A stretch of 64,000 nucleotides of DNA from Azolla caroliniana (lineage: Eukaryota > Plantae > Polypodiophyta). The stretch spans positions 16,678,001 to 16,742,000 of the forward strand of contig JBHGNT010000003.1 of assembly GCA_043228905.1 (NCBI GenBank), read 5' to 3'. Below, piece after piece: positions 14,090 to 35,543 of this stretch (the first letter of the stretch is position 1; each line of letters opens with the position of its first letter). A program made the position numbers and the translations under genes. Under the pieces are notes generated by a model. It ran no database searches. It was not told the origin of the DNA and saw only the letters and a program-made list of their open reading frames with translations.

Positions 14090-14817
14090 TGTCGTAGTGT
14101 ATTTTGTACACTACGTGAAAAACGTATATAGTATTAGATTCAATAAAAAATGAAGAAATAGAAGAAAATAGCAAAATAAATGGAACATGCATAGGGCAAG
14201 ATTCGAACCTTGCACCTCCATGTTAATAATGTAATGTCTTACCATTACACTAGCATTTCATTAGTGTTAAAGCATAGATGTCCCACATAGAAAGGTAAAT
14301 TCACGCTAGGATAAACATTAGAAAAACGCATAACAAAAGAAAAAACTACACATACACATCTAGCATGCATGATAAAAAACGCACAAGTTAGAAAAAAGCA
14401 TGATCACTTTAGATAAAGCATATAGTCTATCTATAGGAAAAGCATGGGGTCTATAGTTAGAGAAAAAGCATGGATTACTAAGACTTCCTCATCACTACAT
14501 AAGGATGGGGAGCACAATGTAATTGTGTGTGAAAAATATTTGGAAACTGGATATGTTTCTAAAAAACACCAATTAATAAACTATACTCGTGGGATTCACG
14601 AGAATTCTATATCATTCTCTTTCAACCGAAGTTTATATTCTTATATTCATATTGATTAATCTAATACAATACACTTGTGGGATTCACGAGTTTGCTATAA
14701 CTCTTTCTTACAACATATTTATATTCTTATTAGCCTTAAAACTCTCCTCTTCCTAGTCCAAAACCCCAGCGGTTCCCACCCGACTCACGCAACGATCCGG
14801 AGCCGAAAGGCACGACA
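14090..14817 (+). mobile_element. X2: solo LTR of the gypsy D family, inserted in the pol of C
   Basis: TGTCGTAG...GCACGACA termini, perfect ACGT TSD (14086-14089 / 14818-14821); both ends match the reverse complement of 18011-18912. Confidence 0.88.
14194..14262 (-). promoter_or_regulatory. tRNA-like A-box/B-box (Pol III type) module inside solo LTR X2
   Basis: Minus strand TAGTGTAATGGT..GCAAGGTTCGAATCTTGC; homologues at 8148-8215 (-) and 18505-18568 (+). Confidence 0.6.
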
Positions 14818-17800
14818 ACGTGTCTCCTATGCGGGCCGGATTTCGTAAACTCGGGTCCGACGCAACCCCCTTTATTCGCAACTCGCTGCCCTCCGGCAAG
14901 GGAGCCGCGACTGGCCTCACCTTCCGGTCCACAGTCTTGTACCTCGTGTCCACCGGGGCCGTCCGACCCGACTCGAGCCCTCTACTGAAGTCCGCGATGA
15001 CTTCGTACATCCTTTCCGAACATATCGGAATCGTCCGGTCCTCTTTAAGGACTCCTCCGATTACCTCTCACAGCTCCCCCAAGGTATCGTCGAAAGAGAC
15101 CGTCTCCACGGCTCCGTTGATTTCCTCTCCAAGGCCGAGGACGCCACATGCCCGAAGTCGCTCCTCCGCCCTTTTCTTTTTCCGTCCGACAACGTCAACT
15201 ATCGTACACCCTCCGTTGTCGGAGAAGCAAAATTTCCTACTTATAGTACAGGGTTTCTTCGCTATCTTACACTAATTGTGGGGTTCTCCCGAAGTGTCCG
15301 GACTATCGCGGCCCCACGCCTTGATAGCCCTCTTCAAAAATCCTCCCGGCTTTCGCCCCCGAGGGTCTCGTGGTTCCTCTCATGGTTCGGTCTCACCGTC
15401 AGGAACTGGACCGAGTGGCGCCCATCCTGGCTCTTGATCCTCGCATAGGCCGAGCCGTTGTCCAGCACCTTTGTCTCCATTTGTGCTGCCGTGATGTACG
15501 GTTCTCCAAGTATAACCGGATGTGAGGACGTCTCCTGTACGAAGAAGTGTTGGTCAATCTCGACATCGCCGATCTTTACTCGTACATTCGGGCAGGCTCC
15601 ATGCAGTTCCTCGGTGGCACGCGTTGTCGCCCGTATTTTCCACCCATGCTTGGTGTTGATCGGCCATTTCCCCTTCTTATAGAAGTCCATGGACATCAAA
15701 TTGATTTTTGAACCGTGGTCCACCAACGCCACCACCGGTTCATGAACATCTCCGATCTTCACGGGGGTCTCCGTGGTTACTCTGGCCCAGTGCGGCCTCA
15801 AATAGTGGCTCTCCGCCAACTCGTCTTCCAACGCCATGTCCTCTATGTGCGTCGTCCACACCTCCACCGGCTTCTCCGGTTCTGTCTCCGTCGACAACCT
15901 CTTCCTCTTCACCCACTCCATGAAGTCCCGCTTCGAAAGTCGAAGCGCATCTTCAAGCCCGTATCTTTTGAGGAGCCGACCTTCGAACTCCTCCCAGGTC
16001 CGGCTCTCAGCCCGTACCTCGAGCACCTCCGTATGGATGCCCGGCATCGCCACTCGAGGGAATCCGGCTAGACGCCTCTCTTCCGGGATGTCCCTCATTA
16101 CCATCTCAGCCCGGTAGGACGCCAAGTAGCTTGTGGCATCCTTTCCACTAAACCAGCCGATCGTACCAACAACCGCCTCGATAGCCCTATCCAGGGCTCC
16201 GGTGCCTTCGCGCGCACTCACTATACGGTCTACAGCCGAAGCCATGGCTTCTGCATGGTCCGACCCCCTCATCTTCTACTCCTCTGCCACCTGTTCACGT
16301 CGGGTTCACCAAAGATGTCGCGTTGCTACGCGCGTGCGTGGAGAACAAGGTGGGACCACTAGGGTCTTGGACCGAGGAATAGGCGAGGGAAGAGAGAGAG
16401 AGAGAGAGAGAGAAACACTCACTCACGTATAGACAAAGAGGCGCACGGGGACGCGGCACAACAACACAGGAGACACAAGTTGAGAACACTAGAGTATGTA
16501 TATAAATATAGGCATGTATTTGTAAGTATGCAGACGACTCGAACGGTTACAGCCGATCAGGTCGGCGAGGTGGATGCCGACGCCTGATCACCCACGCACA
16601 TAGGAGAGCAAGATGGAGATTCTGCCGGAATCACACGGGCATTCCACGGAGCAGAATCAGCCTCCTGAGAACCTGCGTAAAAGAAGCTATGGAGAACGAC
16701 AGAGAAGAAGAGCTTGGTCCCAGTCCGGCAACACTTCGTTCCTTCTAGCGCCGCCCCCTTTTCTTCTCTCCCGTCTCCCTCTCTTTTATAGCTCAAGGAG
16801 GGAGGCCGCCTTGCCCGTTTACATCACATTAATTCTCTGTCCTTTCGGACAGAGATACTCCTCGATTCTCCCTATAGAATATTGCTACCTAGGATCTAAC
16901 CTTTGTGCCTACCTATCTACTATAGGACAAGGGACGTGCGCACGTGTAAGGGCCGGTTCACACACACTATACACGGTTTGCGCCTGGGGACGGTTTTCTT
17001 CACGACAGCGCGAAAGCAATCGGCTCGACACTGCCGACAAACTGCAAGCTAAGCGAAGGACAATGTCTGAAACCGGAAACCGAGAATGCCGAGATGTCAA
17101 AAGTTCCTTATGCCTCAGTGGTTGGAAGCCTGATGTATGCGATGGTATGTACCATGCCGGACATAGGATATACAGTCGGCATGGTTAGCCGATACATGAG
17201 CAACCCTGGAAGAGAGCATTGGGTTGTTGAAGTGGATACTTCGGTACCTAAAACGCACCTCGAACGTGTGTCTTCGTTTCGGTTCAAGTAACCCCACACT
17301 AGAGGGTTATATTGACTCGGACATGTCGGCTGATGTGGATACCAGCCGATACACGTCCGGGTAAGTAATGACTTATGCAAGGGGAGTCATTTCATGGCAG
17401 TCTAGGCTGCAGAAGGCCATGGCGTTGTCAACCACAGAAGCCGAATATATGGCCGCAGCGGAAGCCGACAAGGAAATCATATGGATGAAGGATTTTATCG
17501 GTGAGTTGGGAATTCGGCAAGAGGAATTCCAACTCCATTGCGATAACCAGCGTGCCATTCACCTTACGAAAAATGTTGCCTACCACTCGAGGACCAAACA
17601 CATCCAGAGAAGATATCATTGGCTCCGAGAGCGAGTAGAAGAAAAGGAGTTTGTTCTAGTGAAGATCCACACGGCCGAAAATGGATCGGATATGCTGACG
17701 AAGGTGGTGTCCGCCGAAAAGCTAAACGCACGCCAATAGAGAGTCGGTTTGGTGAAGTACCCCATGCCAGAGTGAAGAGGGAGTTTGTTGGGAAACATGT

Positions 17801-19491
17801 CCCTCTAGATAGGAAGAGAAGTACCATGTTGGTGAGTATCGAATGGGAAGAGAAGTACCGTGTTGGTGAGTATCGGATGGGAAGAGAATTACCGTGTTGG
17901 GAGTTTGTTGGGAAACATGTCCCTCCGCATCGGAAGAGAAGTACCATGTTGCTGATGATGGTGTCTCTGTATCTTCCACGTAAAATGTCGTTGTCTCTAT
18001 GTCTTCACGTTGTCGTGCCTTTCGGCTCCGAATTGTTACGTGAGTCGGGTGGGAACCACTGGGGTTTTGGACTAGGAGGAAGGAAAATTCTAAGGCAATT
18101 AAGAATGTGAAATATATTATGAGAAAGAAAGATATGAAAAACTCATGAATCCCATGAGTATAGTGTATTAGTGAGTACTCAAATTAAGAGAGAATAATAG
18201 TTAGCAAATTCGTGGATCCCACGATTATATTATATTAATCAACCCTTGTAAAAATAATCAACAACCTCTTAGACTATACATCTTTCTCTCTTCCTTATAT
18301 AGTGTTGGAAGAGTCTAAGTTTATCACATGCAAGCATCATGCTTTTTCTATCTTTAGTTTTCATGCACACTGCATGTGCATGATTAGCTTTCTATCTCAT
18401 CTTTTCTTTTTAACTCGAGTGTCTATGCATGAATAACTTTTGTACCATGCATGTCTAGAAATTTTACACGGAATAAAGTTTAGTATAACTCTAAAATTCA
18501 TGATACCCTACTATAATGATAAGGCTTAACATTATTAACATGGAGGTGCAAGGTTCGAATCTTGCCCTATGCATGTAATATATATATTTTTATACTTTCT
18601 TCTATTTACAAATACGTCTCTTCATCCGGTGAGAGACTCTCACCGGCCTTCTTCATCCGGCTCTTTCCGGTTCTATTTCATCCGGTGCTTGATAGTTTTC
18701 TTTGTCCGGTTCTTACCGGGAACTCCTTACCGATCTCTTCGTCCGTTTCTCACTGACTCTCACCGGCCTTCTTCATCCGGCTCTTGTTGGGTCTCCTTGC
18801 CGGTTTCGGTCCTTACCGGTTCGTTCTTCCGGTTCTCACCGGGTACTCCATGTCCTATCCGGAGAGACAAAAAATGTAATTTTTCACGTAGTGTACAAAT
18901 TACACTACGACACTCGCCCCCTCCGAACCCACACATCCTCCGGTATGTGTCGAAGTCCCCGATGCTTACTATTCACCTTCATCCGAAGCTTCTTCCGATT
19001 CTCCCCTTAAGTCGACGATGAGTTCTAATCCACTTTCTTCGCTTTCTGCATCACCGCGATCTTCGTCCGATTGCTCCTTCTGGTCGGTCTTGTCTAGGAC
19101 ATAGGGTTCTTCATCAGTCCGCTTCTTGAAAATCTTCACCCGTTTCCCGGCTATAGGCACTCGTAGCATTGTTCCATCTAACTCGCATAGTCGGTAAGTT
19201 CCGTTGTCGAAAACTTTCCGAACCTTGTATGGTCCGAACCACCTTTTCGCGAACTTCCGCATCGTTGTATGTTGATGATCCAAACTACTGTCGTAGACAA
19301 TCACCCAATCTCCTTCTTCAATCTTCCGCGGTCGTAGTCGGTGCTTTGTGTCGAACCGGCTTTTATTCCGGAATCGCGCTTCTTGTTGTCGGCGTATTGC
19401 TTCCGCTATGTCTTCCGGTCTTCCCTCCAGTTGTCGTATCCGGACCGCTAGTAGTTCTTCCCAGCTCATCTCTTCCTTCCATGGTAGCATT

Positions 19492-22400
19492 TGTTGGGAG
19501 ACAGGTCCCTCCGGATGGGAAGGGAGAAGAACAGTGCAGATGAACAAACTCAACCGAAACCAGATGAGGAGTACCTGGCTACGGAGAGCCGGATGGTGCA
19601 GACCCGGTGAAGACCGGATGAGGAGTACCCGGCTACGGAGAGCCGGATGGTGCAGACCCGGTGAAGACCGGATGAGGAGTACCCGGCTACGGAAAGCCGG
19701 ATAGTGCAGACCCAGTGAGGAATGCTCACCGGATGAAGAGACATATTCGTAAATATGTTTCTGAGAGTCCATCGAGGCTATATTTGTAAATAGCCGAAAA
19801 GTCATATTAGTATAAATATGACTTAGGGCAAACTTCTAGATAGAGTTGTTGTCATTCTTGTTGGCGCAAGGAGTGAGAGAGCGCGTAATTGTGTACAGAG
19901 AGAGAGAGAGAGATAGAGGTCGCTGCCTCTATTGTAACCGCCGCCTGTGGCGAAGATCGTGAGCACGAGGTCGTTGCCTCTGTGAACTCACTGTTATACA
20001 TTCTAACATAGTGATAGTTTGCAGCCTGTGGGCTGCAGTGGTTTTTAACCCTAGTTTGGGGTTTTCCACGTAAACATCCTGTGTACTCTTCTCTTCTTCA
20101 TGTCGTGTTTTCTTTCCCATTTTTTGTGTATGATCCTAAGCTCGGTTGTGGCCGAGCGTTGCGCATAAGGAGCGTCTAGTTCTCGTCAAGTGGTATCAAA
20201 GCGAAACAACACAGAAAATGGACGAATCGTTTGGCGGCATGTTCAAGCTCACCGGCTCCAACTATTCGGTATGGAAGTCGAAGATGAGGAACATGCTCGT
20301 GGTTAAAGATCCTTGGTTGCCGGTTCAGTTTGGGGACAAGAGACCAGACAAGATCGACGCCACAATATGGGAGGTGATGCACATGAAGACAACAGCGTAC
20401 ATACGGTGCTTCATCGACATGAGCCTATACAACAACTTCAATGAAGAGAGCAAGGCTCATGAGCTCAGGGAGAAGATCGGCATTATGTTTCAGAACAAAA
20501 ATGTTGTTAATCAGGTTTCGATATTCCAGAAGCTAGTAAGACTCCGGTACCAAGATGGCTCCAGCATGGTGGAGCACATGAATGCCTTCCAGGGGTTGAT
20601 CCACCAGGCAACATCTTTGGAGGTACCTCTCGCCGATGAGGTACTAGCACTACTCCTGCTCGGTTCCCTCCTGGATAGCTGGGAGACGTTGGTTGTCACT
20701 TTAGCAAGAGTAAAGTCAAGCTTGCTAGATGAGGAGGCGCGTTGGAAAGATAAAGATACGAGCTCCGACTCCAAAGCGTTACTTACCGAATCGGAACGCG
20801 GAAGACATAGGAACTGTAGCCTTCAGAACCAGGAAAAGTCGGGGACACGGTCAAAGTCAAGGGGGAGGCCTACTTGCTTCTATTGCGGCAAGCCGGGACA
20901 CTTCCAGAAGAACTGTCGGCATTTCTGGAAAGACAAGGAAACCGACAGTACCGATTCGAAGCGGACACTGGACCGGAACGGTAAAGACCGGAGGGGGCCG
21001 CACCGGAAGGGGATGACGGCAATCACGGCAAATGAAGAAGAGTTGATGCTCATCACTGAGGAGAGTGAGATAAACCTTGCCGGCGACGAGATGACCTGGG
21101 TGGTAGACTCCGGAGCGTCATTCCACCTTACCTCGGACAAGAAATGCTTCACATCCTACTCAGCCGGTCATCACGGCTGTGTCCGGATGGGGAATGAAGG
21201 AACATGCCGAATCGTCGGCATAGGAAACGTGTGGCTGACAACACCAACCGGATGCAAGTTGCTGCTGAAGGATGTCCGACACGTTCCGGAGGTTCGTCTG
21301 AACCTGATATCAGTCGGTCGGCTAGATGATGAAGGCTACACAGGTAGCATCCGGAACGGTGTCATGAAGTTCAGCAAAGGGAGCCTGATTGTGGCTCGGG
21401 CCCGGAAGGTCAACACACTGTACCTGATGAATGCTCGGTCATATCCGGAAGAAGTGAACGTGGCATCCAACACTGCCGGTGAGCTGTGGCACAAGAGGCT
21501 GTGTCATATGAGCGAGAAGGGGATGAAGAGGCTTGCAGACGACAACCTCATTCCAGTGAAGAACGTGCACTTGGAGAAGTGCACTAATTGTCTGGCCGGT
21601 AAGAAAAACCGGACCTCCTTCCGATCAAGGCGACCGATGAGACGTAATGCGCCACTGGAGTTGGTGCATACGGATGTGTGTCAAGTAGACACGAAGTCAC
21701 ATGCCGGAGCGCAGTACTTCGTGACGTTCATTGATGACCACAGCCGGAAGCTGTGGGCCACACCGTTGAAGACAAAGGATCAAGTGCTATCCGTTTTCAA
21801 AGAGCTCCACGCGAGAGTGGAAAGAGAAACCGGTCGGAAGCTGAAGGCGGTTCGAGCAGATAACGGAGGAGAATACCGGGGGCAGTTTGAGGAGTACTGC
21901 CGCTCAAAGGGAATCCGGCTCGAATTTACCGTGCCGAAGACGCCGGAACTAAACGGACTGGCCGAGAGGATGAACCGGACCATAATGGAGAGGGTCTGGA
22001 GTATGCTAGCGCATGCAAAACTACCCAAGAAGTTTTGGGCTGAGGCATTGTCGATGGCGACTTATGTGATAAATAGATAACCCTCAGTACCCTTGGACGG
22101 AGACACACCACAGAGTGTGTGGACCGGTAAGGAAGTATCCTACCGGCATCTGAAGGTGTTCAGGTGTCTCGTGTACGTGCATGTAGCTAAGGACCGGAGA
22201 GGAAAGTTAGGTCCAAAGACCCGGCCATGCATATTCCTCGGTTACGGTGACGATGAGTTCGGCTACCGAGTGTGGGACCTGGTCGACAAGAAGGTATTCT
22301 GGAGTCGAGATATTATCTTCATGGAGGACAAGACGCTCGCAGACTGGGAGTCGTAGAAGAAGATAATGAACTCCGAGTCGACCGGTAAGGATAGACTCTA

Positions 22401-24827
22401 CGATCAGTAGACCCAATTGGCAAGAGACCGGTTAGCACTCGAGGAACCGGCCAAGACCCCGAATCGGATTCGGATGAAGAGCAAATGGAGGAGCCAGTTA
22501 CCGAAGCCCGAAGACGGAGATATCCTCTCAGAGAGAGAAGGGCCCCCCGGAGATTTCCGGATGAAGAGCATGTTCTGCTGACCGATGAGGGGGAGCTGGA
22601 AAGCTTCGAAGAAGCGAAGGATGACACCCACAGCCGCAAATGGTTAAGTGCCATGCAGGATGAGATGGATTCCCTACATGAGAACCATACGTACGAATTG
22701 GTGGAGTTGCCGAAAGGAAAGCGGGCACTCCAAAACAAGTGGGTGTACAAGTTGAAACTGGGAGATGCTGGCAACCCCCCGAGATACGAAGCCAGAATCG
22801 TGTTGAAGGGGTTCCAGCAGAAGAAGGGTGTGGACTTTGACGAGATATTTGCCCCGGTTGTAAAGATGACCTCCATCCGGATGGTGCTGAGTATAGCGGC
22901 AAGCATGGACCTCGAGGTAGAGCAGCTGGACGTGAAGACGGCATTCCTTCACGGCGACCTCGAAGAGGAGATCTACATGCAGCAACCGGAAGGATTCGTG
23001 GAGAAAGGGAAGGAGCACCTGGTATGCCGGCTGAAGAAGAGCCTGTACGGACAGAAGCAGGCTCCCCGTCAATGGTACTGGAAGTTCGACTCCTTCATGG
23101 CCGATCAAGGGTATCACAAGATGCAGGCCGATCACTGCATGTTTGTGAAGAAGTTCGAAGGAGGCGACTTCCTGATACTCCTTCTGTACGTGGATGACAT
23201 GTTGATCGTCGGACGGGACCAAGTCAAAATACGGATGCTGAAGAAGGCTCTCAACCGGACCTTCTCAATGAAAGACTTGGGTCCGGCAAGACAGATGTTG
23301 GGGATGCATATTATCCGGAACCAGTCAGCGAAGCAATTATGGTTGTCACAGGAGAAGTACGTGACAAAGGTGCTTCACCGGTTGAACATGTCAGATGCGA
23401 AACCGGTCGGATCGACACTTCCGGAAAACTGCAGGCTATCCGGTAAGCAAAGCCCGAAGACGAAAGCAGAGAAGGCGGATATGATGAAGATTCCATATGC
23501 CTCTGCCATCGGGAGCTTAATGTACGCAATGGTTTGTACCCGACCGGATATAGGATATGCAGTCGGAGTGGTGAGCCGGTGTATGAGCAATCCCGGCAAG
23601 GAGCACTGGAACGCGGTCAAATGGATACTCCGGTATTTGAAGGGCACTTCAAATATGTGTCTCCGATTCGGCTCCGGAAAACCTCAACTTGACGGTTTCA
23701 CCGATTCGAATATGTCGGCTAATGTGGATACCAACCGGTCTACATCCAGGTATGTAATGACATATGCAGGGGGAGCTGTTTCGTGGCAGTCGAGGCTGCA
23801 GAAGACGGTTGCATTGTCAACCACGGAGGCGGAGTACATGGCGGCTGTGGAAGTCGACAAGGAAATATTATGGATGAAGGACTTCATCGGAGAGCTCGGT
23901 ATCCGGCAAGATGAATACCGACTCTATTGCGACAGTCAAAGTGCCATCCACCTTGCTAAGAATGTGGCCTACCATTCCCGGACGAAGCATATCCAGCGAA
24001 GGTATCACTGGATCCGGGAAAGAGTAGATGACCAGGAGTTCGCATTGACAAAGATCCACACGGCTGAGAACGGGTCAGATATGCTGACCAAAGTGCTGAT
24101 ACCTGACAAGCTGGATGCATGCCGGAAGACAATCAGACTGGTAAGACACCCTATGCCGGAGTGAAGGGGGAGTTTGTTGGGAGACAGGTCCCTCCGGATG
24201 GGAAGGGAGAAGAACAGTGCAGATGAACAAACTCGGCCGAGGCCGAAACCGGATGAGGAGTACCCGGTTACGGAGAGCCGGATGGTGCAGACCCGGTGAA
24301 GACCGGATGAGGAGTACCCGGCTATGGAGAGCCGGATGGTGCAGAACCGGTGAGGAATGCTCACCGGATGAAGAGACATATTCGTAAATATGTTTCTTAG
24401 AGTCCACCGAGGCTATATTTGTAAATAGCCGAAAAGTCATATTAGTATAAATATGACTTAGGGCAAACTTCTAGATAGAGTTGTTGTCATTCTTGTTGGC
24501 GCAAGGAGTGAGAGATCACGTAACTGTGGACAGAGAGAGAGAGAGAGAGAGAAAGAGGCCGTTGCCTCTGTTGTAACCGCCGCCTGTGGCGAAGATCGTG
24601 AGCACGAGGTCGTTGCCTCTGTGAACTCACTGTTGTACATTCTAACATAGTGATAGTTTGCAGCCTGTGGGCTGCCATGGTTTTTTACCCTAGTTTGGGG
24701 TTTTCCACGTAAACATCATGTGTACTCTTCTCTTCTTCGTGTCATGTTTTCTTTCCCATTTTCTGTGTATGATCCTAAGCTCGGTTGTGGCCGAGCGTTG
24801 CGCATAAGGAGCGTCTAGTTCTCGTCA
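19492..24827 (+). mobile_element. Copia E: full-length Tnt1/Tork-like Ty1/copia element with few lesions
   Basis: LTRs 19492-20188 and 24175-24827, perfect TSD GCATT, PBS TGGTATCAAAGC 20191, PPT GAAGGGGGAG. Gag-PR-INT 20218-22080 (CFYCGKPGHFQKNC, WVVDSGAS), RT-RH 22485-24164. Confidence 0.95.
19564..19725 (+). repeat. 54-bp tandem repeat in the U3 of copia E (3 copies in the 5' LTR, 2 in the 3' LTR)
   Basis: Unit ATGAGGAGTACCCGGCTACGGAGAGCCGGATGGTGCAGACCCGGTGAAGACCGG. Confidence 0.9.
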
Positions 24828-27800
24828 GCATTGTCCATGTCACGATTACGGTTTCCATCGGCATTACCGGTGCTTGTCCGGTCATGAGTTCTGCCGGCAT
24901 ATAACCGGTTACGGAGCTATGCGTTGTCCGATCCGCCCATAGTGCATACGGAAGCATCTGCATCCAATCCTTCACCCTTCCGTCGCATGCTTTGGCAAGC
25001 GCTTTGACGATCGAACTATGTCCTCGCTCGACCTTCCTGTTGGCTTCCGGATTGTATGTCGTTGTTAGTGTTAATCAAACTCCATGTTTGGCGAAGAATC
25101 CCCTAGCTTTATCAGAGTCAAGTTCTCCCCGATCCGCAATCACTTGTCCTACGCACCCATACCTACAAAACACTTCTTCCGAAAGGAATTGGCATACCGT
25201 AGAACACATTTTCCTCCGTAGCGCCTGACCTTCTACTTGATTTGTGTGATCTTCCCAAGCTAACACCAAGTACTTTTGTCTGATCCCGGTTGGCATGGCT
25301 ACAATGCCGACCATCCATTTGAAGTTGATTGTCAGTGAGAATGTCGGAAGTAACTTATCTCGGTGTCGAACTCCGGAGTAGATTTGACACTTCTCGCAGC
25401 TTTCTGTGAACTCCGCGACATCTTTGTACATATTTTTCCACCAATATCTTTTTGCTTGATCTTCCCAAATGTTGCCCATGTTCCCCGATGTCCAGCCCAA
25501 TCAGATTTGTGAAATTCGGACATTACCTAGTTTCGTTGCTCTTTTGTCCTGAGTACTCGAAGTGGTATGCCACCCGGTCTTTTCGGCTCCCTCCATAAAA
25601 TTCCATTTTTCAAGAAGAACTTTCGGACTTGCCGTTTCTTACTTTGGATCTCGGCTCTCTTCTCTTTATTGTCCGATGATTCCTCGATTTCTCGTAGCAT
25701 TTTCCCAATCAACAAGCTTTCTCCCTCGTATTCTTCTTCCCAGAATTCTTGGATTACATCCACCCGGCATATGCGCTCCAAAGCAAAGTAGTCTTCGGAA
25801 ACTTCTTCATTATCGGATTTGGTTATGCCATCTCCGAACCGCGCCCTTGATAGCATATCCGCTACAGCGTTGTCTTTTCCGGAGATGTGTCTTACCTCCA
25901 GATTAAGTGACTTAACATATGCAATCCATCTTAGCATAGCCACATCCGGTATCGTGCAACACCGCATCATCCCAAGTATCGGAAGACAATCCGTTTCAAT
26001 CACTACTTCGGCTCCAATCAAATAATCTCGATCCGATTTGATTGCTGACACGACTCCCCATAATTCTCTTTTAACTTGTGCATATCCACGTTTCCTTTCA
26101 TTGAGAACCTTTGCTCCGAATCGGATCGGATATCGCGAACCTTCCGGATCAGCTTGATTGATGACCCATCCGATTCCTGTTGAACTTGTGTCAACCGTTA
26201 CTATGATCGGTTGGTCATAGTTCGGCTTCTTTAGTGCTTCTACCCTCCGTAGTGATTTCTTAAGCTTCTTCACGGCTTTGGTATGCTCCGGTTTCCATTC
26301 AAAATTCTTACCCTTCCGCAACAAGTGATAGAGTGGGTCCGCTATATGTGCATAGTGTGGAATCCATATGTGGTAGAATGCACATGCTCCAAGAAACCTT
26401 CGAACTTCGGATTGTGACTCGCATACTTCTTTCATAGCTCGAATCACATCGATCTTGGTTGGTGACGGTCTTCGGCCGTAGGGCCCACATAGATGTCCGA
26501 CTACCAATATTTCTTCTTGTCCGAATGCCGATTTCTCTCCGGAAAGTGTTAGATGCACATCTTCTAACTTCCGTAACACTTTCTCACAATCACGGATATG
26601 GTTGACTACGAACCTTCGGCATCCCCGTTCATCCATAGCTTCATCTTTTTCTTCCACCGCACACCCTTTTATCAGAATGTCATCTAGGAACGGCATCGTT
26701 ATCTCTGGTATGCAATCCCGGAGCACCTTGTTCATCGCATTCATCATATGTGCGACTGAGTTCGTCGCGCCTTGTGGTAGCGTACACATCCCGACTAATC
26801 CTATCGGTGTCCGCATGGTAGTGATGTCTCGGCTCTTCACAGCTAGTTGGAATTGGTCATATCCGGAGTATAGGTCTCCGATGGAGTATATTGCGCGACC
26901 GGCAAATGCTTCCGCAAATTCGTCCACTATCGGACCGACTCCGGAGTTCCGGATCATGACCTTGTTCACCGGTTGCAAATCTTGAATAAATCGGAGTGAC
27001 CCATTCTTCTTCGGAACCATAAACCATCGATTTGAGTACGGAGCATTTGATGGCTCTAGAATCCCCATCGCCACCTTCTCCTTGAGCAAGTCGATGATTT
27101 TCGGAATATGCGCCCGTGGCACTGGAATCGGCTTCAGGTTCCACGGCACATGGTCAATCATGAAGATCACCATTGGCTCCACTATCTTCGGGTCAGCGCA
27201 TCCTATTTCTTTCGATGTAAATGCAAATGCTCTCCCATGTCGCTCTAGCATCCCACGAAATCGTTCTTCTTCATTCTTTAATAGGAACCCACCTCCACTG
27301 ATCCGAAGTTTCTTCCGGGTCTCATCCGTGAAGGCATGTCCGATATCCACGGATTTCCGAAGTGTCAGATCTCCCGAGATTTCTTTCCTCTTTTGTTCGC
27401 TAAAAGCGGGTAGTGGTCCCGCGGCCGGTTTCACCTTCTTCTCCACGGTCTTGTATTTCGTACTTACCATTGCTTCTTCTTTGCGGAGCGCATCCGGCCC
27501 CATTTTCACAATGATCTCGTACATCTTGACCGACTTCACCGGAATTACCCGGTTTCCCTGGCTTGTATCTTCCGCGAGCTCTTCAAGCCGTTGTAGTGTG
27601 TTTCCATAGAACACCTCTTCGACTATGCCCACGATTTCTTCGTCTTCTTTTATTATTGATGTCGATCGTAACTTATCCTCCACTTTTCGGTATTCTTTCT
27701 TCATTCCTCCGGTTACGGCCGTCTACGTGGATGCCCCATCCTGACCGATTCGTACTTGTTTTGCACCGAGAGGTTTCTTCCTGTGTGGGGTATCAGGGCT

Positions 27801-28288
27801 TCTCGGACTATCACTTCCCCACTCCGCAACAATCCGCTCTAAAAATCCATTCTTGTTTGGGACAAGAGCTCTCTCTTGTTCCTTTCATGATTTGCCGGCA
27901 CCGTTAGGAATTGGACGGATTTCCCTCCGTTTTGGCTCCAAATTCGTGCAAAAGCCGCACCGCTATCGAGCACCTTCGTCTCCATCCGTGATGCCGTAAT
28001 AAAACGTTGCCCGAGGGTCACGGAATGTGAGACCTCATCTTGTACGAAGAAATTTTGGTCGATCTCGACATCCCCAATCTTCATCGTCACATCCGGACAA
28101 GCCGCAAATAGATCTTCCGTTGCTTTAGTGGCCGCCCGGATCTTCCACCCATGATTCGTGTTAATAGGCCACTTACCCTTCCGGTAGAATTCCTTGGACA
28201 TCAAGTTGATCTCCGATCCGTGATCAATCAATGCTAGCACGGGTTCTTTGATGCTACCGATTCGAACCGGAGTCTTTGTAGTTGCGCG

Positions 28289-31200
28289 TGTCGAATACAA
28301 ATGTATAATGGACGTATTCACACTATCATCTTAGAGAGCCCAAGTTTGGGCTATTTCTGTAAATAACATAAAGGGCAGTTGCCCTAAATGAGTCACTATA
28401 TAAAGTGACTTTATAACCTTTTGTAAAGGTTGGTTGTTCATTGTTGTAGTTGTTGCCCTTTTATGAATATAGATATATTCTTTGTGCCTCTCTCTCTCTC
28501 TCTCTCTCTGTGCGTATTTTGTTCTTGCCTTTCTCATACGTAGGTATTTCTTCCTCACAGTTTCATACTGTGTGATCTCTTCCGCACTGACGGCCTTGTT
28601 CATTCCCTACATATGGTATCAGAGCTTGGATTTCCTTCATCCCGCTGCCGGCCGCCATTCGAATCTTTGGATCACAACATTCTGTTTTTTTTCTGTTTTG
28701 TATGAATATAGATATATTCTTTGTGCCTCTCTCTCTCTCTCTCTCTCTCTGTGCGTATTTTGTTCTTGCCTTTCTCATACGTAGGTATTTCTTCCTCACA
28801 GTTTCATACTGTGTGATCTCTTCCGCACTGACGGCCTTGTTCATTCCCTACATATGGTATCAGAGCTTGGATTTCCTTCATCCCGCTGCCGGCCGCCATT
28901 CGAATCTTTGGATCACAACATTCTGTTTTTTTTCTGTTTTGTATTTGAAGAAATAGAGAAGAGAGAAGAAGAAGAAAGAGGCTTGCATCTCATCGCGTTA
29001 GATCATCTTTGCTTGGAGTAAGCCAGCCGACTGTACTCTGTTCCTCGTGATCGTAACCGCTCGAGGTGAAATCCCCTTGTGCAACATTGACACGATCGTG
29101 CTCCACTTGGTTGAACGGCATCCGAACAGGTCACCGAACGCTGCTCGCCACCCGTTATAACCACTCGGTGCAGATCGGTCTCAAGACAACAACCCCAATT
29201 CGTGCTTCATCCGGCTGATTGACATTTGGGAGGATCAATTGGATCCGTCTCTCTTGTCGCTGCAGTCACCCGAAGCAGAATCGGTCCAGACAATCGGTAT
29301 TTGGCATATATATCCGGAAACGAACCGGGCTCACTCCGACTCGGCAACATTCGGGGAGACCAGTCGGTTATGTCCCTCAAGTTACCGGAGTCAATTCGAG
29401 CAAGTTCAACAATACATATATCCAAAACCGAACGATATCGGGTGAGTCGACCAGTTGCACTCCAACAAAGTTCGTAGTCAACTCCGAACCGAGCTTCGTC
29501 AACCGAAACCGAATCTGATGGCATCAACATCCGGCTCATCGGAAATGAGTCTAAGGAGGTTTGACGGTTCGAACTTCAATTTTTGGAAGGAGCAAATGCA
29601 GGAATATCTTATAGTCAAGGGTCAGATCGATCTGATTGAGAATGAAACTGCTCCAGAAATATACAAGGCAAATGAGTGGCAGAAGCTGGATAGAATCGTC
29701 TGCGCCACGATTCGGATGCACCTGTCGGAGTTAGTGTACTTCACAGTGCAATCGTGCACGACAGCCTTCGAACTTTGGAAGAAGTTGTCGGAAACCTACG
29801 AAAAGAAGGTCGCCTCAACGAAGATGTATTTGATCCGGTGCCTCTACAACTTGCGGATGAAAGACTCCGATTCGGTTCAGGCACACCTTAACGAGTACGA
29901 AAGTTTGAGCTCCCAAATCTTGTCACAGGGAACGACAATCGAGGATGAACTCAGAGCAATGATACTCATGAGCAGTCTCCCCTCCTCTTGGGAAACCTTC
30001 GTTACAACTGTGTGCAACGCTTCTACGACTGCCATCAAGTACTCCGAAGTCACAAGTGCAATCCTAACTGAAGCAGCTCGGAGAAAGTCTTTCACCAAAG
30101 ACTCGGTAGAAGAAGCCTATGTAGTACAAAGCTCGACCGACCGATCGAACAACAGGGGAAGAAGTTCTTCCCGACCACCGACAAATCAGCGAAGCCGCAG
30201 CAAGTCCCGGGAAACCCGAATCTGCAACTACTGCAAGAAACCGGGACACATCAAGGCCGACTGTCGGGTACTCAAGTCAAAGACAGACAAAGCTTAGAGA
30301 GCTGATCAGAGGAGTAACCAACATGAGGAAGTCAACTATGTCAGCTCTTTAGCCGAGATATTGACGACCGACCCAAACATATTCTCCATAGAGAATCCAG
30401 TCGAATCAAAAGTTCTGCTTACGACTGAGGAATCGAGCACATGGCTTCTGGACTCAGGCGCGTCGTATCACGTGACACCTCACCGATCACAGTTTCGGCA
30501 ATATTCGGACTGGCACTCCGACTCAGTTCGAGTCGGAAATTCACAACACTGTGCTATCATCGGAATCGGCACCATAGAGCTCAACCTTCCGGATGGCTCT
30601 ACACTCGTACTACACAACGTCCGACACGTTCCTGAGCTCTCACGACCCTTGATCTCAGTTGGACAACTTGATGAAGCTGGCATCCATGCTGGTTTCTCAT
30701 CAGGAGGATGGACACTCCACAAAGGAAACCTCCTGCTTGCTAGAGGACCAAAGGTACACTCATTGTACCCTTTGTATGTCACACTCAAAGAGGGTGACTT
30801 ATTTCTGGTAGATATCCCTGTGTCATCCTTATGGCATGGACGACTTGGATACCTCAGCAAGGCCGGCATCATGCACCTATCCAGAGCCGGATACATCCCG
30901 AAACTCTCCTTCTCGGACCATCAGTTTTACAAGCTTGCCAGTACGGCAAACAGGTAGCCGCATCACACCCGACATCAACACCAAGAGAGTCGAGCCCGCT
31001 CGATTTGGTCCACTCGACGTCTGTGGCCCGATGCCACATCAGTCACTCGGTGGTGCCTCGTACTTCGTCAGTTTCATTGACGACTCGACTTGGAAGGTGT
31101 GGGCTTACCCCATCAGAACCAAAGATCAGGTGTTCTCGATCTTCTCAGATTGGCTCGCAATGGTCGAAAACCAGACCGGTCGGAAACTGAAGTGTCTCCG

Positions 31201-34053
31201 AACTGACAATGGAGGTGAGTTCAAATCTGATGAATTTGTCAAATTTTGCTGAGAACGCGGCATTAGACGTGAATATACGGCACCATATAGTCCGGAGCAG
31301 AACGGAATCGTAGAACGCATGAATCGGACGATTCAAGAACGCGTTGTATCCATGCTCCAACACTCCGGACTGTAGGATGGCTTCTGGGCAGAGGCTCTAC
31401 TCACGGCAGTACACATAATCAATATGTCGCCAAGTAGACCTCTAGGACTTAAGATACCTCAGGAAATATGGACTGGCAGAAAGCCGAATTATGATAAGCT
31501 GAGGATTTTCGATTGCGAGGCATACGCACTCATACCAAAAGATGACCGCCGAAAACTCGAACTGAGATCAAGGAAATGCGTTTTCCTCGGTTATGGACCC
31601 GACGGCGAAATCGGATACCGACTCTGGGACCCCGAGCACAGGCAAATCGTCCGAAGTTCGGACGTCGTGTTCAACAAGTCGACTATGCACAAAACGGCCG
31701 AAAGGCCTATTGAAGTCCGAAGGGTAATATTTTCCGAAGTGCCAACCCTTCATGACGGCCCAACACACAACGTGAGATTGGTTTCACGGGTAACTGACTT
31801 CTCTTGCACCGAATCCACAGATTCGGCACAGCCGAATGGCTCGGCTTCTAACCATCCGACATCGACACCCGATGCGACCAGTCCAGTCATACCTCGAAGA
31901 TCCGAGAGACTGTCGCAACCTCCGGAGAGGTACTCTCCCGGAATTTTCTTCACCGACATCGGCGAACCGACATCCTACGAAGAAGCATCGGCAGCTGCCG
32001 ATTCAGCCACCTGGCATCTGGCAATGGAGTCGGAAATGCACTCCATCCGCGCCAACAAGACTTGGGATCTGGCCGACTTACTGAAGAATCGACGTGCTCT
32101 TCCTTGCAAGTGGGTTTATAGACTAAAGGAGACGTCCGACTCGACCACCCCAAAGTACAAGGCCAGATTAGTTGCGAAGGGATTTTGACAGGAATATGGC
32201 GTCGACTTCGATGAAATCTTTTCACCAGTGGTAAAAATGAAAACCCTTCGTTTCATGCTCAGTGTTGTGGCTGTCGACAATTTGGAGCTCATTCAGCTAG
32301 ATGTGAAAACGGCATTCCTCCACGGTGATCTAAAGGAGGAAATCTACATGGAGCAGCCGAAAGGCTTTGTGGCCACCGGTCAGGAACATCTAGTCTGCCG
32401 ACTCAGGAAGAGTCTTTACGGCCTGAAACAGGCACCCCGACAGTGGTACAAGAAGTTCGACGATTTCATCCAGTCTGTCGGCTTCTCCAAGAGCAATGAG
32501 GACCACTGCCTCTTCACCAAAACAGCTCAAGACGGTTCTCCCGTCTTCCTCATCATCTATGTGGACGACATGCTACTCTCTAGTCGGCATATCGGAGAGC
32601 TCACCAAACTCGTTCGGAAACTGCGATTGAAGTTTGCCATGAAGGACCTCGGTCCGGCAAGACACATAGTCGGAATGAAGATTAGTCGGAATCACGCCAA
32701 AAGACAGTTTTTCTGTCTCAAACCAACTACATCGGACGTGTCTTGGAACGCTTCAACATGCAATCGGCAAAGTCTGCTTCGACCCCGCTCCCCATTCATC
32801 TTCGGCTTTCTCAGCGAGACTGCCCGACATCCGGTCCGGAGGGGGAAGATATGAAGTCGGTACCGTATGCATCGGCAGTAGGCTCTCTGATGTACGCAAT
32901 GGTCGCGACACGGCCTGATATTTCTCATGCCGTAGGAGTCATCAGCAGATTTATGCACAATCCCGGCCGATCGCACTGGAACGCAGTCAAGCATGTGTTC
33001 AGATATTTAGCTGGCACAAAAGACCACGGCATCCTTTTCGGTCCGAACTCAACTTCAGGCGTACTCGGTTACACCGACTCGGACTTCGCCGGCTGTGTGG
33101 ATAGTCGCAAGTCAACAACCGGATATTGCTTTAAATTCGGCAATGGAGCAATCTCGTGGAAGTCGAAACTTCAGGAGTGCACAGCCACCTCAACGACCGA
33201 AGCAGAATATGTAGCTGCCTCCGACGCAGCGAAAGAAGCTTTATGGCTCGGTCGGCTGGCGCACACATTTCGGCAAGTCGACTCCGACTCAGCTCCAGTT
33301 CTCTACAGCGACAGTCCGAGTGCTGTTGCTTTGTCGAAAAATCTGGTTCATCACAACGCCTCCAAGCATATCAAAGTTCGATATCACTTTGTTCGGGACT
33401 GCGTCATTTCCGGGAAAATCGGTTTAGAGAAGATATCCACAACCGATAATGTCGCAAATGGAATGACCAAGTGTCTTTCGGCAAACCGGTTCCAGTCTCT
33501 TCGGCAACAGATGGGCGTAACAACATATCGGTCCGGTTGAAGCCGGACATAGTGCACGACGGTTTCGGACAACAGACATCGGTTCACTGACAATCGGCTT
33601 CAGCTTTTCCGACCCGACCAGTTCGGTCTTTTGTCTACGGATCATGCTGATTCGAACAAAACCGACCTGTCCGAGAACCTATGCCTATACTCGTACTTTT
33701 TAGATAACCCATGTATACGCCCATTACGGGGGAGTGTCGAATACAAATGTATAATGGACATATTCACACTATCCTCTTAGAGAGCCCAAGTGCGGGCTAT
33801 TTCTATAAATAACATAAAGGGCAGTTGCCCTAAATGAGTCACTATATAAAGTGACTTTGTAACCTTTTGTAAAGGTTGGTTGTTCATTGTTGTAGTTGTT
33901 GCCCTTTTATGAATATAGATATATTCTTTGTGCCTCTCTCTCTCTCTCTCTGTGCGTATTTTGTTCTTGCCTTTCTCATACGCAGGTATTTCTTCCTCAC
34001 AATTTCATACTGTGTGATCTCTTCCGCATTGACGGCCTTGTTCATTCCCTACA
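28289..34053 (+). mobile_element. Copia F: degenerate full-length Ty1/copia element with short LTRs
   Basis: LTRs 28289-28611 and 33735-34053, TSD GCGCG, PBS TGGTATCAGAGC 28614, PPT ACGGGGGAG. Gag from 29518 (CNYCKKPGHIKADC), WLLDSGAS protease, INT, RT, RH to 33540, with stops and frameshifts. Confidence 0.93.
28462..28941 (+). repeat. ~240-bp tandem duplication of the R/U5-PBS-leader of copia F
   Basis: 28462-28700 repeated at 28701-28941; PBS at both 28614 and 28855. Confidence 0.92.
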
Positions 34054-34652
34054 GCGCGTGCCCAATGTGGTTTTGTGTAGTGAGAATTCGGTATTTCGCC
34101 ATCCAATTCAGTGTCATTCATCAGAACGGTATTTGCATTCGCCCTTGGAGCGTTCTCCTTCGTACTTTGCCTTTTTCTCTTCACGAGATCCACAAGAAGA
34201 TCGTGGAACTCCTTCTTCGCTATTCCGAGTAATTCTCGAAGCGAAAAATCTACCCGGCTATCGAGGATACTCTCCTCGAACACCTTTTTCAAGTCCGTTT
34301 GTTGTTCTATTTCCGAGGCGAGCTTGAATGCCGGAATCATCTTTTCTTTTCCCTTACCTCCGGAGTTCCAGCTTTCCGGTGTCTTCGATGGACCGGCCGC
34401 CTCATCCGTGCGTCGTCGCTTCTCATCTACATACACTTCATGCAATTGGCATAAAGCAAACACGTTATTCTTATCAATAGGGCACTCCCATCCCGTAGCT
34501 TCCCGGATGCCTTCCGCGGTGCTTTGGATCTCGTTAGAGTCAGTTTTCTCGGTGTTTTCTAGCACTTCCGGCCAAAAAGACACCTTTGCTCCCGATGACT
34601 CCCCGACACGTATTCCCGCGGTTGTCGCGTAATTGTTCTTCGCCGCTATTTT

Positions 34653-34672
34653 AGACCCTAAACCCTAAACCC
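34653..34672 (-). repeat. Short interstitial plant telomere-type repeat
   Basis: Minus strand reads GGGTTTAGGGTTTAGGGTCT inside the gag of D. Confidence 0.7.
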
Positions 34673-35543
34673 TTTTCCTCCTCTAGGATCTTCTTCATGC
34701 CACCTTTCCGGAAGTTCGGTCGGAGTGGCTTCCGAGAGTCCATCGAATGAATCCAATTTCCCTCGTAGTAGATAAGATCCCGTCGTAACGCCTCCTTGTG
34801 CTCGTCTCAATCCCTCCGATCATGTTCGGTGCTATCGCACCATATGCATCGACGGTCCATATACTTGGAACTTGTGGGACGGTCATCCGACTTCTTCACC
34901 ATCGCGATTTTTAGATTCTCCATCTCCTTCAGCAACGGCTCCACCGTAGTTGCGTCGATTCCCTTCTCAGTTGTAGCTTCCCGAGCCCGCGGTTGATGGT
35001 CTTCCGATCCGGATCTCAGTTTCGGAATCGGTTCCGAAACCCTCTTTTCTTCGTTGGCAAGCCATTGCCCCCTCTTTGTGTATCGTGCGACAATATCCCG
35101 CACGCTTTCCCATGTTTCGGTGAGGCCACTCTCGGTATTCGTGTCCTCTAGAAGCACTCCAAGATCCTTCTGGTCCCGGACGTCTACAGCTCGTAAGAAC
35201 ATGATAACTTTGTCTGGTGCGAGGATAGCTTGATCTCTCGCAGACAACCTCCCGAACCGACTTTCGAATGCCGAAAACACATCGAGGACCTTCATCCCCT
35301 TGTCCGGCATTTCTACCCAATCCTCGAATCCTCTCTGCGTTGCCTTGGAGGAGTCCTCGATAGCGAACGTGGTCTTTAGCGCCTCTTCAAACGCTTCCCA
35401 TGTCGGATTTTGTTGTCGTAGCCCGTGGATACTTGCTTGAAACCCGTCGGTAGCCACCCGGTTGAAGGATGTCACTTGCAGTCCTTCCGAAATCCCGCAC
35501 CGTAGCATTTCCGCCTTGTAGTCCTGAAGATAGCGCGATACGT

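Follow-up and report, generated by a model that had tools for sequence, protein, structure and literature searches.

Retroviruses of the HTLV-1 and MMTV type make their pro-pol product through a pseudoknot-stimulated -1 slip between protease and reverse transcriptase (RT), as we propose here; they also shift between gag and pro, whereas in the elements described below gag and protease are a single ORF. The protease would therefore be made 1:1 with Gag, as it is in the avian Rous sarcoma virus. In plant viruses, the heptamer G_GAU_UUU has been proven to serve as a -1 site on plant ribosomes when a stop codon stands directly at its end or 3 nt farther on; the stop codon contributes, and any of the three will do (PMC4737148, in the part of that source drawn on here). 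The junction that we report resembles that of the umbraviruses and dianthoviruses (PEMV2, RCNMV) in its identical heptamer, in the position of its ORF1 stop, directly at the heptamer or 3 nt farther on, in the free identity of that stop and in its presumed use of plant ribosomes. It differs in the stimulator, which in PEMV2 and RCNMV is a hairpin that is bulged and has a long-range partner (PMC4737148), whereas a compact local H-type pseudoknot is predicted here, and it lies in a retrotransposon.

Plant LTR elements are reported to be single-ORF, spliced, or to have pol in the +1 frame (PMC5009743 and PMC12786077, both in part), and in a 2003 survey, as relayed in PMC5009743, +1 is the sole gag/pol layout of plant elements. 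Some groups possess a GAG-PROT first ORF, for which the portion of PMC6317226 used here gives no mechanism except the intron of Ogre; that intron measures ~274 bp, whereas in our case the frames overlap without a spacer. In the same portion, the elements of Phygy, a non-chromovirus Ty3/gypsy clade, have a 4-bp NCGN target duplication, a tRNA-Trp primer site, no chromodomain and a compact size, as do the elements studied here. Their ORF organization is listed as 'ND' (PMC6317226), whereas here the split is fixed (gag-PR / RT-RH-IN) and carries a putative frameshift signal, and they are described as specific to P. patens, whereas the protein relatives that we found come from moss, liverworts, and fern. 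A literature search on the signal, on Phygy and on -2 shifting, with subscription papers, Gao 2003 and Repbase/REXdb entries outside its scope, found no description of this signal.

The window, a stretch of 64,000 nt from Azolla caroliniana (GenBank assembly GCA_043228905.1, contig JBHGNT010000003.1, positions 16,678,001 to 16,742,000), is a nest of LTR retrotransposons. Element D, on its minus strand, is a decayed, three times interrupted copy of a Phygy-like Ty3/gypsy family (Table 1), and its three pieces match another copy of the D family at 86.5-89%. With its three interruptions and a premature stop, the window copy is a dead element. The 3' LTR of D (902 nt) is only ~73% similar, in patches, to the LTR of another D copy, while the internal part reaches 89%; an LTR swap or fast LTR evolution may lie behind this. 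A D-related solo LTR in the opposite orientation (14090-14817) splits the pol of a second element, C, between its junction and RT, and C carries a private stop 24 codons into its -1 frame. The plus strand has a C-type 5' end at 35544-37040 that continues into a repeat resembling a copia LTR (37031-37225), beyond which (38500-44000) lie a different gypsy-type gag/PR/RT/IN and a further 3' ORF, an arrangement that may be chimeric or nested.

Table 1. Positions of element D, of its junction signal and of homologous signals (window coordinates unless a locus is named).
Feature	Position	Strand	Remarks
Slippery heptamer G_GAU_UUU (DNA G_GAT_TTT)	27842..27848	-	final two codons of the gag-protease ORF
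ORF1 stop TAG of D	27839..27841	-	first 3 nt of the spacer
Predicted pseudoknot stem 1, 5' strand CGGATTGTTGC	27826..27836	-	
Predicted pseudoknot stem 1, 3' strand GTGATAGTCCG	27804..27814	-	
Predicted pseudoknot stem 2, 5' strand GTGGGG	27817..27822	-	within the stem 1 loop
Predicted pseudoknot stem 2, 3' strand CCCCAC	27785..27790	-	
Premature TAG in the pol frame of D	27723..27725	-	41 codons into the -1 frame; absent at that codon in 29 other D copies
Homologous signal of element C	15279..15343	-	heptamer 15343-15337, TGA, same two stems
Signal of the -2 branch	L116:2835-2910; L121:2497-2572		same pseudoknot
D gag part	34054..35538	-	has a zinc knuckle and DUF4100; disrupted by stops and frameshifts; 86.5% match to another D copy
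C-type insertion	35544		truncates the 5' end of D
Copia element inside the D protease	28289..34053	+	5-bp duplication CGCGC
D aspartic protease part of ORF1	27839..28288	-	DHGSEIN motif
D pol, -1 frame	24827..27848	-	130-aa linker, RT, RNase H, start of integrase
Second copia element, inside the D integrase	19490..24827	+	
D integrase tail	18969..19489	-	89% to another D copy
D 3' LTR	18011..18912	-	ACGT follows the LTR

LTR pairs were found in 19 of the 20 fetched regions (one of the 20, L192, missed its junction). Between the LTRs, Pfam searches of ORF1 and ORF2 gave the Ty3/gypsy domain order GAG-PROT-RT-RH-INT, with the protease only weakly detected: Asp_protease_2 matched 17 of 23 aligned relatives, at a best E of 7.7e-5 that lies under the curated cut-off. 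No capsid family was matched by Pfam on ORF1, the protease profile gave 0 matches among PDB sequences, and the two full ORF2 that were searched contain no chromodomain or extra domain at E<=0.05. The linker of ~130 aa between the shift site and a conserved TKYK motif before RT (L061:2410-2800 and its homologs) likewise matches nothing in Pfam at E<=0.05.

Identical 4-bp duplications, all of the form NCGN, flank 15 of the 19 elements, and 18 of the 19 have a primer site beginning TGGTGAACCC after the 5' LTR, the complement of which ends the genomic tRNA-Trp(CCA) genes at all three loci scanned. Genes resembling tRNA-Trp(CCA) occur in tandem arrays (C8:17.80-17.82 Mb, C16:4.99-5.11 Mb), with 63 pattern matches genome-wide. 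The NCGN duplications, the tRNA-Trp primer site and the lack of a chromodomain fit a Phygy-like assignment, in which the RT is not placed among the REXdb references; the element size of 6.95-8.0 kb overlaps only the low end of the 7.7-10.0 kb of Phygy. One of the loci has a predicted protein of P. patens (Physcomitrium) as its sister.

ORF1 of D ends ATG GAT TTT TAG on the minus strand, and every coordinate and letter given for this junction in an earlier note, made from the window alone, proved correct. The spacer TAGAG is 5 nt long (27837-27841), CGGATTGTTGC pairs with GTGATAGTCCG in stem 1 with the help of four G-U pairs, and stem 2 (GTGGGG/CCCCAC) is identical in C. As that note had said, the -1 frame (FLERIVAEWGSDSPRSPDTPH) crosses one TAG into the RT/RNase H frame, which has 731 codons from stop to stop and 725 aa from the first Met. 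This TAG was considered as a readthrough site and rejected, being private to the window copy and a sense codon in other D copies. C and D do have the same heptamer, stop position and frame offset, as claimed, but the identity of the stop differs (TAG in D, TGA in C). The term 'compensatory', applied in the note to the changes between the two stems, is wrong for this pair because only one-sided changes occur there: four of these keep pairing, four pairs are identical, three are lost in C and none changes on both sides. One of the G-U pairs of D (column 17) is private decay, since most other D copies have C at this column. Taken singly, the 67-nt region of D folds with z = -1.33, and 20 of 200 shuffles fold equally well under a scoring that is blind to pseudoknots; Rfam models of frameshift elements gave 0 matches at E<=1 in positions 27600-28000 of the window. 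D alone is not significantly structured, and the case for a signal is built on comparative sequence data, which are far beyond chance.

For this comparison, copies were gathered by similarity of their protease, not by the motif, and their frames were assigned by profile search. Among 29 other copies of family D, ORF1 ends in G_GAT_TTT-stop in 28, and RT lies in the -1 frame in 27, of which 22 are open through the site; one remaining copy has no RT match and another is fused through an extra T. Family C showed the heptamer in 27 of 29 other copies (RT in -1 in 25, in +1 in one, no match in three), and a third family of the same genome showed it in 19 of 22 (RT in -1 in 17, in +1 in two, in frame 0 in two, no match in one). 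Two odd-frame copies of this third family were inspected, and both have indels. We also examined a metagenome set (169 loci found, 80 kept, most from one accession series), in which RT lies in -1 in 57 loci, all open through the site, in -2 in two, both open, and in +1 after a break in three; the other 18 are uninformative (16 without RT match, two without junction). The heptamer is present in 71 of 78 metagenome loci, and its variants are G_GAU_UUC and G_GGU_UUU.

Genome-wide, a motif pattern gave 3,658 matches against one for the reversed control, although counts by pattern preselect the motif. With one stricter pattern, the five-T form was found 2,991 times and the in-frame six-T form five times. 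The signal is thus present in about 3,000 copies of the genome, and five are fused in frame. These five come from several subfamilies and none has been amplified, so fusions arise but have not spread. The same heptamer, stop and frame offset recur in three families of this genome and in dozens of outside families, and over 31 junctions the stop is TAG in 14, TGA in seven, TAA in six, and farther down in four.

The ends of the ORF1 protein were compared as well. Among its close homologs, 98 of 120 end within 60 aa past the protease, with DF in 61, DF plus five residues in 26, NF in four, GF plus five in two, VF[DY] in two, and none of these in three; [DNG]F ends total 93 of 98, against a background rate of 4.2%. 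Of the distant homologs, 55 of 129 end near the protease, 35 with [DNG]F plus 0-5 residues, one with VFY and 19 with none. Named carriers of this ORF1 end are Physcomitrium patens, Riccia sorocarpa, and Adiantum nelumboides, and a look-up of 10 distant proteins returned Calypogeia fissa as the only named organism. A search begun from one distant protein gave two matches. In L125, L128, L135 and the proteins ending in DF plus five residues, the ORF1 stop stands five codons beyond the heptamer, in the stem 1 and loop region; from this one group, an adjacent stop is not essential. Viral contigs were scanned for relatives, and none were found there.

To describe the RNA, the 146 loci with heptamer and flank were clustered by protease identity (85%), which gave 30 clusters. 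H-type pseudoknots were then sought by a simple method that needs no alignment; within its own locus, the junction ranked in the top 5% of positions for 27 of the 30 clusters, 23 of them without a better control. The poor scorers in this search are L033, L127, and L130; in L124 the best-scoring knot is a different one, and in L134 plain MFE gives another fold.

Covariation was judged by direct pair counts in a plain MAFFT alignment of 31 junctions, which contains no gaps over stem 1. In this stem, 81.8% of cells pair, and two-sided changes are seen at nine of 11 pairs (37 cells). None of 500 shuffles matched four of the five measures and nine of 500 matched the fifth, counts that are not probabilities because the rows are related, just as the changes are not independent events; partners slid along the alignment pair in 26-44%. 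Unaided, RNAalifold recovers an 8-bp core of stem 1 with a covariation term of -1.36. Because only 12 of the 31 rows keep the outer pairs 13-45 and 23-35, we put the conserved core at 8-9 bp and the spacer at 5-6 nt.

The 3' strand of stem 2 is found in all three codon registers, with a loop 3 of 9-17 nt (5 in one row), and GUGGGG/CCCCAC is replaced by GCGAGA/UCUCGC, GCAGGGA/UCCUUGC or CAAGG/CCUUG. With partners chosen per row, cognate pairing exceeds 20,000 of 20,000 permutations over 19 distinct loops; singly, only 13 of the 31 rows exceed 95% of base-shuffled windows, and the stem is often merely GGGG/CCCC. Both predicted stems covary two-sidedly across the 31 diverged junctions. Within family C (L031-L060), one stem 1 pair changes from A-U to G-C with a synonymous GAT/GAC change in its partner, and a large subfamily has a C-A mismatch beside this switching pair.

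We read the junction between protease and RT as a site where a pseudoknot stimulates -1 ribosomal frameshifting, and give this a probability of about 0.88. The frame layout, the heptamer, the stop position, the two-sided covariation of both stems and their independence from the encoded peptide are directly supported. The -1 ORF is open through the site, the heptamer, of a known non-canonical form (PMC4737148), stands in the register of ORF1, and a covarying predicted 3' structure follows after 5-6 nt; the usual -1 stimulators consist of a 5-9 nt spacer and an H-type pseudoknot (PMC5009743, in part). The gag-protease ORF ends just past G_GAU_UUU, with RT, RNase H and integrase in the -1 frame. 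An H-type pseudoknot, predicted 5-6 nt downstream, would fold in the cell, and ribosomes would pause with GAU/UUU in their P and A sites and re-pair on GGA/UUU. The minority that slips would make the full Gag-PR-RT-RH-IN with a junction ...M-D-F-L-x-R-T..., and most would stop after Gag-PR, which would leave Gag-PR in excess over RT and integrase.

The earlier note was right that the signal is real; it missed the clade-wide position of this signal after the protease, as well as a sister branch with pol in the -2 frame. In two metagenome families of this branch (L116, L121), ORF1 ends CAG GTT TTT (G/T)AC TAG, the -2 ORF extends over 1,153 and 1,100 codons, respectively, and the -1 frame closes within 1-6 codons. 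A scan of the Azolla genome for this type gave 96 matches against one in the control, 94 of them of the true type by eye. Both frames could be assigned in 15 of 25 such loci, with pol in -2 in 13, in -1 in one and in frame in one. Nine full-length copies have LTR pairs that are 99.4-100% identical, and their ORF2 is open over 1,154-1,155 codons in seven. The stop in the -1 frame is immediate in the GAC type and comes 6-27 codons on in the TAC type. Between -2 families, pol has a dN/dS of 0.09 at dS ~1.2 and of 0.12 at dS 0.2; the value of 0.09, a mark of purifying selection, points to an offset that is old and functional.

In a protease-only tree, whose outgroup does not lie on one side of a single branch, the -2 elements form one clade (100/99); it lies within a supported group (98/98) that otherwise consists of -1 members. 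As it is nested among -1 members, the -2 clade is likely derived. Its pseudoknot is fixed relative to pol and its heptamer (AG_GUU_UUU) lies one base nearer to the pseudoknot, a 5-nt spacer being found also in D-type rows with an extra outer pair. A -2 slip is probably the route to pol in this derived branch. A distant ORF1 protein of Calypogeia fissa (P0205) ends V-F-Y-stop, like the -2 branch, and its end possibly reflects an independent -2 origin.

The arterivirus nsp2TF -2 site, GG_GUU_UUU, and the sister branch both have G_GUU_UUU, a long -2 ORF and a UGA at once in the -1 frame (PMC4937337, in part). In PRRSV, -2 shifting involves no RNA structure and needs nsp1beta and PCBP bound at a C-rich motif 11 nt downstream (PMC4937337). 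Unlike PRRSV, the sister branch has a covarying predicted pseudoknot 5 nt downstream, and the stretch that would hold the C-rich motif is stem 1. Stem 1 takes the position of that motif, so the branch, although it may work like an arterivirus site, does not belong to that type.

A different route to the same pol frame in the -2 branch, which we regard as possible although rather doubtful, is a +1 shift, either at UUU_G/U or on the UAG stop codon, similar to that of antizyme with its 3' pseudoknot. Shifts of +1 and -2 lead to the same frame, the UAG comes two codons later, and the antizyme +1 cassette, which uses a 3' pseudoknot, gives -2 in budding yeast (PMC5009743, in part). It is upstream, however, that letters are conserved (AG_GUU_UUU); the codon that follows them is variable (GAC/UAC), and re-pairing is impossible at GAC_UAG. 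The motif with its immediate -1 stop matches the arterivirus -2 site (PMC4937337), and shorter spacers favour -2, the optimum for -2 shifting being at spacers 1-2 nt shorter (PMC3458567, in part). Keeping a -2 slip as the preferred reading of the branch, we lean towards a wider picture in which a clade of gypsy elements of non-seed plants would use a pseudoknot-driven -1 shift to control RT and integrase, not protease, and one branch, with its slippery site moved one base closer to this pseudoknot, would have switched from -1 to a protein-free -2 shift stimulated by RNA structure. What is new here is the nested branch with AG_GUU_UUU and a -2 pol, which has likely switched in nature to -2 frameshifting.

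Explanations of the junction that dispense with ribosomal slippage fare worse. Splicing might join Pol to gag-protease, as in Ogre, or produce a separate spliced or subgenomic mRNA, with the structure regulating splicing or packaging. The site is U-rich, an AG often follows it, and ..CAG|G in the -2 branch resembles an acceptor, but the ORFs overlap with no gap, the AG has no fixed position (column 9 in 14, column 11 in 12 and column 13 in 12 of the 31 rows, and none in some), and GT is not conserved near the site. Raw RNA runs gave no usable coverage of either junction. Splicing also leaves unexplained the perfect heptamer in the codon register of ORF1, and we consider it improbable.

Termination-reinitiation or internal initiation would instead yield a separate Pol, with the pseudoknot as an entry or reinitiation signal. 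The conserved position of the stop codon and the early AUGs in the pol frame of some families agree with this, yet the first pol-frame Met falls between codons 7 and 112 in 11 families, no AUG is conserved near the site, and the pol frame stays open upstream, through the heptamer. Such a mechanism is very improbable.

Scarcely credible is conservation of the protein only, as a WGxDSP linker in which the protease may cleave, or common ancestry with the frameshift as a decay mutation. The peptide is common to C and D, between which only one-sided changes occur, and the earlier note had named this peptide as what could undo its own proposal. No residue of WGxDSP is invariant over the 31 rows, however (W in 17, G in 27, D in 13, S in 19, P in 26), and pairing is seen in 255 of 279 pairs, against 163 +/- 6 pairs expected from synonymous codons that keep the peptide of each row. 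Because stem 2 occurs in all three codon registers, this peptide cannot explain it. As for decay, the offset is common to thousands of copies with LTR pairs that are 96-100% identical; the heptamer, stop and offset shared across families, and the covariation of both stems, support a conserved slippery site and pseudoknot rather than random decay, as the note had argued. Structure-stimulated RT slippage exists, and five genomic copies do have an extra T, but slippage of Pol II or RT that adds U/T in the U5 run and so restores the frame in RNA or DNA is just as hard to credit, given a T run only five long and fused copies that number five against 2,991 and were never amplified.

Pseudoknot-stimulated -1 frameshifting past the protease would explain how RT is expressed in a very abundant clade. 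If the signal is true, 'frameshifted' copies of this clade should not be counted as broken. The clade supplies dozens of natural covarying cassettes, and in its -1/-2 sister pair, which stand one base of spacing and two site letters apart, the question of frameshift direction becomes testable. If true, the switch from -1 to -2 would put the mRNA-tension (spacer-length) model to a natural test.
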